NCBI GenBank assembly: GCA_044866005.1
Contig: JBIOTN010000004.1
Coordinates: 1-44,846 of the forward strand
Source: Candidatus Rokuibacteriota bacterium
GTDB lineage: Bacteria; Methylomirabilota; Methylomirabilia; Rokubacteriales; DASRDR01
Length of the DNA: 44,846 bases
Direction of reading: 5' to 3'
Position numbers: made by a program. Shown here piece by piece: positions 12,001-15,000 of this stretch; position 1 is the first letter of the stretch, and the number at the start of each line of letters is the position of its first letter.

Positions 12001-15000
12001 GCGGCCGTGTGGGTCTCGCCGATCCGCACCTGGCGGAACGGCACGAGCTGGCGGCGATCCTCGTAGCGGTGCGGAAACCAGCTCAGGGCGTCGCGGATCG
12101 TGTGGAGGCCGAGCCGATCGAGGAGCCGGGCGCGCTGCGGGCCGACACCCTTGAAGTACTGGAGCGGGCTCTCGAGAGCCGGCGCCGGGTCAGGCCGCGG
12201 GTCCACCGGAGGCTCGGCGGGCCGGGTCGGAGGCCGGGCTTGTTTCACCGCGCTCTCCATGGTATAGAAAAGCGTCGCCCCCCGGCAAGCCGCGCGGGGC
12301 GTCATTGCTTTTGAGGAGCCACTCATGGCACAGCGTTGCGATGTCTGCGGGAAGGGTCCCGTCGTGGGTCACCAGATCAGCCACGCGCACAACGTGAGCA
12401 AGCGTCGATGGCTGCCGAACCTCGTGGCCATCCGCGCGGTCGTGGACGGTCGGGCCCGCCGGATCCGCGTCTGCACGCGCTGCCTGCGCACGGGCAAGAT
12501 CGTCAAGGCCGTCTAGTCCCAGATCGGACGGGGCCGCCACGGCCTCCCCGAGACCGCTCCGGCGTCTGCGACGAAACGCCGGCCGCCGAGGAGGGGCGCT
12601 CCCCGGCGGCCGTCACGATGAGTCCCGGGCGGGGGCCGCTACCTCGCCCCGCACCCGATCCCACGTTACTTCTTCTTCTTCTTGGCGGCCTTCTTCTTCG
12701 CCACTGTGCGCATCACCTCCCTTTCGTTAGGGTCGGCTGGCGGGGAGGCTGCACCCGTCCCCGCCTCGCCTTGGCGCTCCTAGCTACTTCTTCTTCTTGG
12801 CCTTTTTCCTCGTCGCCATCTCTCTCACCTCCTCCCCACGCTGGGGTCGCGCCCTCGATCTCGGGCGCGCGCGCAGTCCGGGCACGAGCCTAGAAGCCCA
12901 TCGCGTCCCGGCGCAGCTTGTCGGCCTGCTCCCGTCCCCGTCGCTCGTGGTGATAGAGATCCACGTACAGTTGCGGGAGGCAGACGACGCGGAGTCCGCC
13001 CTTCGTGAGCGGCGCGTAGAAAACGCCGAGGTCGTACGGCGTCATGAGGTAGACCGTGCCTTCGCCCTCGACCGGCTGAAGCCCCAGTGCCCGGGCCACC
13101 GGCTCCGAGTCGCCGCCCACGTAGCAGTGGATGGTGGGCACCCGGACCTGCGGCCCGACGAGCGAGGCGCCGGCGTGGAGCGTGAACGCGTAGCTCATCC
13201 CGGCGGCCGCGGCCTGGCGTGCCAGGCTCTCCATGAGTCGCCGCTTGTCGGCGACCGGCGAGACGAAGGCCGCGGTGGTGTTCACCCGGTAGGTGTACTC
13301 GTCGCGCCACGCGTCGAGGAGCTCCCCGGGCCGCTGGAGGCGGAAGCGCCCCTCCGGGCCGCGCTCGATCCACTCGACGTCCTCGAGCCGCCGCACGACG
13401 TTGTGGGCGTGCCCGAGGCTCACCGAAGCCGCGCGGCCGAGCTCCTCCAGGCGCCAGCTGCGATCGCGCTCGACGAGAAGGGCCCGGACGATCCGCGTCG
13501 CCCGCGGCGCGAAAAGCGCCTTGAGCGGGCGGCTGGCCGGCCGCACGTTCGGCTTGCCCTCCTTCTCGATGAGCACGTTGTCGAAGGCGAGGTAACAGTT
13601 GCCGGAGAGATCGACGTACCCCGAGCCGTGCTGCCGGAGCAGGGCCGCCGACTGCGGACTGATGTACGGCGCGACCGCGACGGAATAGGCACCGGGGACC
13701 TGCTCCCGCAGGCCACGGAGGCGCGTGAGCACCTCGCGGATGTAGCGGGGCTGGCCGACCGGGCGGACCTCGCAGATCAGGACCTTGGTCTCCGAGCCCA
13801 TCCGGAAGCGGACGAGCAGATCGACCGTCTGTTCCCCGACGTGCGTATCGAGAAGCTCTTGCCAATCGGTGGCTTGAGGAAACAGGTTCCGCAGCCGCTG
13901 GGCGGCTTGCTTCTTGAGATCACCGACTCGGACCATGGTTTCACTTGTCCCGACATTTTCAGCAGCCGCTGAAACACTAGAAGGAAGTGAAAACCTTGTC
14001 AAGTAAAAAAACGGCGAACCCGGCCGGGCAGTTGACGGTCCACCCCCGTCTGGCCGAAATGCCGTTTTCGAACTCGCGGGCAGCGGGCAAGCCGGCGCTT
14101 GCCCGCCCCGCGCGCCCGCGCTAGAGTGCGCCGCGCGATGGCTGCGGCCAGACGACGGCGCGCCCACATGGAGGGAAAGGCCTCCACGGCCGCGCTGGTC
14201 GCCGAGCTCGACCGCGTCAAGAGCCGGTTCGGCGCCGGCGACCGCGCCGCGAAGCGCGAGGCGCTCGCCGCCCTGGCGACGCGCCACATCCCGGACGTGC
14301 CGGGACTCCTTCGCTTTCACGACGCCCTCTGCTTCCTGCGCGCGTATCCGGGCGATCCCGGACTGCTCTCGACCGTGGAGCGGGCGCTCGAGCGGTTCGG
14401 GGCGCGCGTGACCGCCCGCCGGGTTGAGGGCGGCGACGGGGCGGTCCGGGCCCTTGAGGAGACCGGCGTCGCGCGGACGACCGTCTACTGCCCCCTGTCC
14501 CATCCGGCCCTGCGGTGGCTGGCCGAGCGCTTCCCGACGGCGGCGGAGATCGACTGGGACGACGCGGAGACGGAGGAGCGCGTGGGGAAACTGCTTCCGC
14601 TCGTCCTGGCGCTCGCCGACGAGGAGGCCCTGGTCGAGGTCGGCACCTCGACCCGGGCGTGGCTCCAGGCCGCCAAGCGCGGCGATCCGCGCAGCGACCT
14701 CGCCTGGCTCCTCGCACGGGTGAGGCGGGGCCTACCCGACCCCGCGCGGCGGCTCGTCGAGCGCTGGCTGGAGCTCCGCACCGTGTGGCGCCTCGGCGAC
14801 GACGCGGGCTCGCGCACCCTGGCCGCGCGGCCGGGCCCACGGATCTTCTTCCACCGGCGCGACCTCCTCCGATGGCGCGGGCCCCTCGGGCGGCGGCTGC
14901 CGGGCGGGCGAATCGTCGTCAGGCGCGCCGCCCGTGACGAGGCCGCGGCCCTGCTCGATGCGGCGCGCGCGGCGGTCGTCGTCCGCTACCGCGAAGTCCA

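Follow-up and report, generated by a model that had tools for sequence, protein, structure and literature searches.

Very short lysine-rich genes conserved behind toxin-antitoxin-type regulators in Methylomirabilota, and their possible likeness to histone H1 tails

Introduction

Several bacterial proteins rich in lysine and alanine resemble the tail of histone H1. Chlamydial Hc2 (Pfam PF07382), Bordetella BpH1, Pseudomonas AlgP and the KPAA tail of PhaF are the closest to the genes described here: their Lys clusters are spaced by Ala, Thr, Val or Pro, their length varies by whole repeats, and they have no fold. Hc1 and Hc2 are described as condensing DNA, with RNA preferred by Hc2 (PMC2848022), and PhaF is reported to bind RNA through its KPAA repeats (PMC12818456). 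Oligolysines of 3-10 charges condense plasmid DNA in vitro, and the charge of histone tails is given as +8 to +14 (PMC2790876). Prokaryotic histones are reported to be mostly tail-less (PMC12701072, PMC10627809).

Three other groups of systems are relevant to the locus. AbiEi proteins of type IV toxin-antitoxin (TA) systems are reported to repress their own promoters via inverted repeats, which lie over the promoter in abiE and rv2827c (PMC7319586). In MNT-HEPN TA pairs, a gene for a winged helix-turn-helix (wHTH) and Pol-beta-like protein overlaps a HEPN gene. The ribosomal micro-proteins eL41/eS32, bS22, bTHX and bL37 are very short, basic and overlooked by gene callers.

Here we analyze a window of 44,846 nucleotides (the whole stretch of contig C4 studied, positions 1 to 44,846) from a Candidatus Rokuibacteriota genome (G000; 4.67 Mb, 94% complete). 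All positions refer to this contig unless stated otherwise.

Results

Two micro-genes between g00066 and rpmB

The initial annotation had placed two uncalled genes for lysine-rich peptides of 9-17 residues in tandem next to rpmB, each with a strong Shine-Dalgarno (SD) site. Both were found on reading the sequence, on the minus strand between g00066 and the converging rpmB, with the following features:

12784..12819, minus strand: micro-gene 1, MATRKKAKKKK, 11 aa, ATG to TAG (sequence read, ORF scan and relatives)
12666..12704, minus strand: micro-gene 2, MAKKKAAKKKKK, 12 aa, GTG to TAA (sequence read, ORF scan and relatives)
12825..12833, minus strand: Shine-Dalgarno AGGAGGTGA of micro-gene 1 (sequence read and ORF scan)
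12713..12720, minus strand: Shine-Dalgarno GGAGGTGA of micro-gene 2 (sequence read and ORF scan)
12739..12765, minus strand: hairpin 3' of micro-gene 1, resembling the dispersed GGAGGGGGGCGGAGCCCCCCTCC-type repeats of the genome (folding)
12626..12657, minus strand: hairpin 3' of micro-gene 2, the last micro-gene (sequence read; relatives folded)
12580..12612, unstranded: long GC hairpin separating rpmB from the operon, probable terminator of both (sequence read and folding)
12325..12516, plus strand: rpmB (bL28), converging, neighbour only (Pfam PF00830, E 4e-23)

The motif GGAGGTGA lies 5 nt before the ATG of micro-gene 1 and 8 nt before the GTG of micro-gene 2; the anti-SD sequence was assumed, because the genome yielded no 16S tail. 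A third copy, at C126:18839-18877 (minus strand), does have the promoter- and terminator-like sites of its own that had been claimed for it, with TTGACA-17-TAACGT upstream and a hairpin and T-run downstream, where an EamA gene follows in the same direction.

When the complete 4.67 Mb were scanned for Lys-rich ORFs (6-40 aa, at least 35% Lys), 21 candidates came up, and the two best SD scores belonged to micro-genes 1 and 2. Strong SDs before short ORFs are not rare in this genome: 58 of its 232 SD-plus-start sites have ORFs of 25 aa or less, only 3 of which encode oligolysine (micro-genes 1 and 2 and the C126 copy). The case for the micro-genes therefore rests on conservation.

We read the hairpins behind the ORFs as ordinary stabilisers and a terminator. 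The counterpart of the hairpin at 12626..12657 is nearly invariant (GGTGGGGGGTGGCGGCCTCCCACC) in most of the family f2 loci among those listed. The idea that the hairpins are a special RNA and the main feature was rejected, since many family f2 loci have a weak middle hairpin or none and the genome contains similar hairpins at scattered sites (31 pattern matches). Rfam gave nothing close to the gathering score between positions 11000 and 15000.

Conservation as coding genes

For a test free of any search pattern, we anchored on g00066 and read the DNA 3' of the gene in 59 genomes, leaving out 2 unpublished ones of the 61 relatives. Micro-ORFs precede rpmB in all 59 Rokubacteriales loci (one in 8 loci, two in 48, three in 3), amounting to 113 ORFs of 10-23 aa that encode 50 peptides in 81 DNA variants. 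The proposed conserved family of very short proteins is thus strongly supported and, as had been claimed, present in most Rokubacteriales; it is not limited to that order, and with the sister orders described below its length range becomes 10-25 aa instead of 9-17.

The 113 ORFs behave as coding sequences. Every run of at least three Lys codons is in frame (215/215), Ala is encoded by all 4 of its codons and Arg by all 6, synonymous and K/R changes occur, and the spacer after GGTGA varies from 4 to 9 nt. Starts are ATG (94), GTG (18) and TTG (1), and the composition is K 68%, A 23%, R 3%, T 2% and G 2%. The avoidance of TGA stops, which had been doubted as an artefact of the search pattern, persists where no pattern is involved (TAG 71, TAA 42, TGA 0/113). 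For comparison, TGA ends 1862 of 2800 long ORFs in the genome, 20 of the 82 that end in Lys and, by our own count, about 34 of 59 g00066 genes. A single change turns AAG into TAG and AAA into TAA, which may account for some of this avoidance.

A pattern without a stop codon matched 143 of 201 genomes of the phylum (a tally that includes the unpublished G038, G055 and G163), against 1 of 201 for the reversed control; it missed family f7 (0/18 matched), although that family does carry variants. Related genomes are not independent, so these conservation counts overstate the evidence. Even so, the micro-ORFs are very probably protein-coding.

An AbiEi-like gene leads the predicted operon

Upstream of the micro-genes lie the following features:

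12890..13936, minus strand: g00066, 348 aa (Pfam AbiEi_2, E 1.2e-5; model pLDDT 89; present in 61/61 relatives)
13974..14002, minus strand: predicted sigma70-type promoter TTGACA-17-TAGTGT of g00066 and the micro-gene operon (alignment of upstream regions)
13937..13995, unstranded: nested inverted repeats over promoter and start, a probable operator (outer TTTCACTT...AAGTGAAA; inner TTTCAGC-N4-GCTGAAA at 13957-13974)

The model of g00066 comprises a PD-(D/E)XK-like fold (residues about 1-127), a winged helix (133-213) and a Pol-beta NTase-like/AbiEi fold (228-348). Structure comparison connects it, via Z scores, to 1y88 (Z 11.5, rmsd 2.3, 105 aligned) and, for the Pol-beta NTase-like domain, to MenT1 8an4 (Z 10.4, rmsd 2.8, 120 aligned) and AbiEi 6y8q (Z 8.5, rmsd 3.3, 105 aligned). 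Like AbiEi, g00066 scores above the Pfam AbiEi_2 cut-off, combines a winged helix with a C-terminal AbiEi-like fold and has inverted repeats over its promoter. It differs in its additional N-terminal PD-(D/E)XK-like fold and in occupying one conserved chromosomal locus, whose distribution follows taxonomy. Furthermore, no toxin gene lies 3' of it: in place of AbiEii, the micro-genes stand alone in the 171-500 nt before rpmB (59/59 loci). An acidic, peptide-binding domain on g00066 was considered and discarded, as all three domains are slightly basic.

The promoter pattern TTGACA-17-TAnnnT recurs upstream of the gene in 57 of 58 orthologues; a promoter tool overlooked it at g00066 because the -10 element has only 3 of 6 matches. 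The inner inverted repeat is found in 58/58 loci and the outer one in 51/58. Within the genome the inner palindrome is single (allowing up to 1 mismatch), and a wider g00066 regulon was rejected on that ground. The distance from the g00066 stop to the first micro-ORF is 19-76 nt in 58 of 59 loci, no internal promoter was detected in the last 300 nt of g00066 (0/58 loci), and g00066 itself has an SD in only 8/58. We therefore predict that the micro-genes form the 3' end of an operon led by g00066, which is probably a self-regulating gene for a DNA-binding protein that would bind the palindrome. None of the 9 scorable g00066 paralogues (11 fetched) is accompanied by micro-ORFs.

The initial annotation had linked the family to rpmB. 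The two do adjoin in all 59 loci, but rpmB always converges and, as described next, other genes lie downstream in the sister orders, so the adjacency is incidental. What matters as the partner of the micro-genes is the regulator upstream, together with its operator-like palindrome.

A different regulator pair in the sister orders

In the sister orders, tandem micro-ORFs come after a wHTH-MNT/HEPN gene pair in 14 of 15 fetched loci. The first gene overlaps the second, as in MNT-HEPN pairs, but the catalytic motifs, which we take to be GSx10DxD and Rx4-6H, look eroded by eye, so that the pair is read as degenerate; the HEPN family is present in 46/57 genomes of these orders, and micro-genes come next. 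Among 144 Rokubacteriales genomes it has one weak match. Outside the phylum collection its relatives amount to 32 loci, nearly all titled NC10 or Methylomirabilota.

Micro-ORFs were found in 43/43 scorable HEPN-anchored loci, once 2 unpublished loci and 1 lying at the end of a contig were set aside. They encode 72 in-frame peptides of 12-25 aa that end in TAA or TAG, plus 2 out-of-frame shadows ending in TGA, with a composition of K 55%, A 27%, T 6% and P 4%. Three distant HEPN paralogues have none (0/3). A palindrome different from that of g00066 covers the -10 region in 40/43 loci; the -10 regular expression fits only 1 of 43, and TTGACA is visible by eye in the rows listed. Downstream lie genes for an acyl-CoA dehydrogenase, an aldehyde dehydrogenase or a cyclodeaminase, and rpmB is absent. 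Comparison by hhalign finds hardly any likeness between the two regulators (probability 1.8%), limited to a weak one in the winged helix. The micro-gene cassette thus sits behind two different TA-type modules, and the family is nearly universal in the phylum Methylomirabilota.

Stand-alone copies and spread beyond the phylum

An SD-anchored scan located 82 loci. Matches labelled as other phyla had been suspected of being mis-binned, which is partly correct: several have a GC content of about 0.7 and Rokubacteria synteny and are mislabelled. Many others are genuine. Fourteen loci labelled as other taxa lack that GC content and synteny, one of which, labelled Bdellovibrionales, resembles a Patescibacteria contig. 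Scanning for the ten N-terminal residues alone gave at least 120 loci, and the filter applied to these matches kept 108 of 122 (about 5 of the 14 dropped were dropped wrongly). The 108 comprise 26 products of up to 15 aa, 30 of 16-25 aa, 19 of 26-50 aa, 14 long or open-ended pure repeats and 19 other or fused forms. The matches listed carry titles from Planctomycetota, Verrucomicrobiota, Acidobacteriota, Nitrospirota, Patescibacteria, Bacteroidia and Nanoarchaeota/Woesearchaeota.

Within the order to which one Nanoarchaeota genome belongs, 18 of 151 genomes match (control 0). Among 13 loci inspected in this order, 6 lie beside a gene for a class II tRNA synthetase and 4 beside one for an M50 peptidase, confirmed by Pfam, and genes of archaeal type nearby include eS17 and DUF460; these copies are not mis-binned Rokubacteria. 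By eye, the expression signals match the type of host, with TATA boxes and T-runs in archaea, TTGAC..TATAAT in Patescibacteria and a Bacteroidia copy without an SD. Prevalence by the narrow pattern is low elsewhere (2/121 genomes in the family of G208, 4/121 in the order of G209), most copies outside the phylum stand alone, and one stand-alone locus had no match among plasmids. The likeness across phyla may be convergent and is likely so in part.

Codons track host GC while the peptide is kept (rho -0.70 for AAA and -0.75 for GCA/GCT; n = 56, flank GC 0.21-0.72). This excludes the pure form of a rival that had been raised at the outset, a purine-rich RNA motif.

Products with this N-terminus form a length continuum from 11 to more than 100 aa. 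The 24 longer ones examined include 5 SWIB proteins, which have a nucleoid role, 3 with a histone fold, 2 enzymes (Fae and HPPK) and 1 ankyrin protein. Of the histone-fold products, L225 matches 9qt0 with E 7.7e-20, L175 is weak, and L128 was assigned by its likeness to L225. At most of 39 viral loci, the same N-terminus is the tail of unrelated phage proteins. As enzymes and unrelated phage proteins share it, the SWIB and histone fusions are weak, suggestive evidence.

Discussion

We lean towards reading the peptides as minimal polycations that resemble histone H1 tails and bind nucleic acid. H1-like proteins are suggested by what the peptides are composed of and by the continuum of lengths: acidic and aromatic residues are absent from the 113 ORFs and from the sister orders, as in Hc2 and BpH1, and longer members of the series (4/24) reach sub-cut-off HC2 scores. 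In contrast, the peptides have 10-25 aa versus 165-237 for the H1-like proteins (PMC2848022), three to six Lys per cluster versus two basic residues per pentamer, and tandem genes versus internal repeats, and their genes are placed behind a TA-derived regulator. Eight forms of 22-43 aa had no match to PF07382, forms below 20 aa not being scannable. By the defining features tested, the micro-peptides belong neither to Hc2 nor to the AbiE system.

In this reading, a single mRNA would start at the g00066 promoter. The regulator, mostly without an SD, would be produced sparingly, and the micro-genes in bulk through near-full SDs, tandem copies and 3' hairpins; g00066 would occupy the palindrome and limit the operon, as AbiEi proteins do. 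Strong translation would yield Lys/Ala peptides of 10-25 residues with a charge of about +7 to +14, possibly the smallest form of bacterial H1-tail-like proteins. They would bind DNA, and probably RNA, regardless of sequence, neutralise charge and contribute to nucleoid compaction alongside HU and polyamines, and the C126 copy with its own promoter could supply peptide free of the g00066 operator. The genome has 4 HU/IHF genes and is among the 38 of 41 with SpeE-like genes (a tally including the unpublished G038). The peptides therefore fill no obvious gap and would add to these systems, and the notion that they replace missing HU or polyamines is unsupported. An unfolded 12-mer should be short-lived, which counts against this reading.

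If this is correct, an entire phylum of bacteria abundant in soil and groundwater retains 1-4 genes for some of the smallest nucleic-acid-binding proteins. These would show how small an H1-like protein can be and would tie together free peptides, long H1-like repeats and the tails that bacterial histones carry. The operons would be two cases of TA modules that apparently became housekeeping regulators. A bolder version, which we regard as possible and rather doubtful, is that of a widespread, unannotated class of free histone tails from Methylomirabilota to DPANN archaea, made by ribosomes and serving as counter-ions of chromatin or RNA. In this phylum they would be dosed by TA modules domesticated on two independent occasions (AbiEi-like in Rokubacteriales, MNT-HEPN in the sister orders), acting as autoregulated switches whose peptide output might drive nucleoid condensation or dormancy.

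The strongest competitor, itself unlikely, makes the peptides the effector of a domesticated TA-like switch, in which a burst of polycation upon derepression condenses DNA or blocks translation and leads to dormancy. The peptides occupy the usual place of the toxin gene, winged-helix and NTase-fold modules with their own promoter palindromes precede them in two lineages, the two regulators have little in common, and Hc1 and Hc2 are reported to repress transcription and translation (PMC2848022). The inheritance of a single locus along taxonomy, the extra copies without an operator, the mostly stand-alone copies outside the phylum and the paralogues of both regulators without micro-genes speak against it. 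The chemistry would be that of the preferred reading; the difference is that the action would be conditional, not structural.

There is a slim chance that the peptides are small ribosomal or ribosome-associated proteins in the manner of eL41/eS32, bS22, bTHX or bL37. The initial annotation had suggested nucleic-acid or ribosome binding, of which the former agrees with the H1-tail reading and the latter is weakened by the incidental position of rpmB. Size, charge, escape from gene callers and near-universality in the phylum fit, the genes adjoin rpmB, and one DPANN copy lies near eS17. However, the micro-genes vary in copy number (1-3 in tandem plus extra loci) and length with free indels, encode far more Lys than Arg, lie outside a ribosomal operon and have no sequence match to these proteins; forms of 22-23 aa had no Pfam or PDB match.

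It is improbable that translation counts and the product does not, as in a leader peptide, a tRNA-Lys sensor, a ribosome-loaded element acting on a neighbour gene or mRNA stability, or a purine-rich RNA motif. Strong SDs, conserved hairpins and Lys runs would suit such a role, as would the co-directional EamA gene at C126 and at 3 of 14 stand-alone Rokubacteria-type loci. Yet the downstream gene converges at the main locus, nrdR converges in 7 of the 14 stand-alone loci, and among 14 loci from other phyla, 8 have a converging gene as their nearest identified downstream neighbour. With downstream genes often converging and not conserved, a role in cis is unlikely, and the conserved co-directional operon tied to the repeated amino acid that typifies leader-peptide attenuators is missing.

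There is still less to be said for a counter-ion of another polyanion, such as polyphosphate or membrane lipids, or for a lysine store. AlgP, an H1-like protein, is reported to act on polyphosphate granules (PMC9239181), but neither PPK1 nor PPK2 was found in this 94% complete genome, PPK1 occurs in only 24 of 81 phylum genomes (including the unpublished G038 and G055), which makes polyphosphate unlikely as a general ligand, and the peptide has no hydrophobic face or export signal. We give hardly any credence to a substrate of a modifying pathway (RiPP-like or lysine methylation): 10 of the 14 stand-alone Rokubacteria-type copies lie next to a divergent gene for a B12-dependent radical SAM protein, but the other 4 have a PRTase gene, neither locus has the co-transcribed maturase or exporter and the leader/core layout of RiPP precursors or any other co-directional enzyme, and no SET domain was found in the genome.

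The literature search returned no description of these genes and none of the peptide strings, and supplements and smORF catalogues may list the peptides unnamed. Such genes mostly escape gene callers, and trypsin would destroy the peptides in proteomics. Their synthesis is trivial, so the main claim is directly testable. Among 8 forms of 21-43 aa, a single 23-mer is on record, as a 'hypothetical protein'.

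DNA-binding genes beside lysine-rich genes

In the sister orders of the phylum (loci L312-L372), a wHTH-MNT + HEPN gene pair was present in 46 of 57 genomes. It has its own operator-like palindrome and its catalytic motifs look eroded by eye, and the pair is apparently a domesticated toxin-antitoxin module. Another wHTH-MNT gene, whose GS..DxD motif looks intact, stands apart in the genome under study:

C75:5656-6700, wHTH-MNT gene

By eye, a HEPN-like ORF comes next, and this C75 locus is without micro-genes.

DNA-binding genes also lie immediately upstream of lysine-rich genes in other phyla: a HARE-HTH gene precedes the micro-gene in a Nitrospirota locus (L063:1632-2144), and what by eye is a small excisionase-like HTH gene precedes the match, a long Lys/Ala gene, in an Elusimicrobiota locus (L094).

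Lysine-rich tails and C-terminal tags

Most prokaryotic histones lack tails according to PMC12701072 and PMC10627809. In Planctomycetota, three face-to-face-type (DUF1931) histones bear an N-terminal lysine-rich tail of ~15-25 residues:

L128:301-522, histone
L225:97-330, minus strand, histone
L175:91-330, minus strand, histone

SWIB occurs as stand-alone proteins in Nitrospirota and one Rhabdochlamydiaceae genome (L121, L143, L146, L184, L207), with Lys/Ala tails of highly variable length (~20-70 residues). Longer Lys/Ala proteins end in a conserved C-terminal tag, AWPFP in Betaproteobacteria (L153, L164) and PVGDVFG in Acidobacteriota (L139, L194, L203). Two archaeal loci encode a lysine-rich micro-ORF with a C-terminal cysteine cluster (L140 and L221; …CCSCCR, …KCRCC); in L140 this micro-ORF lies in tandem, downstream of the 11-mer.

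Other features

A Pfam search gave no match for an ORF divergent from g00066, the AbiEi_2-domain regulator gene:

14099-15841, plus strand, 580-residue ORF

In the genome, a dispersed REP-like palindrome, GGAGGGGGGCG(C/G)AGCCCCCCTCC, occupies ~20 sites over many contigs.
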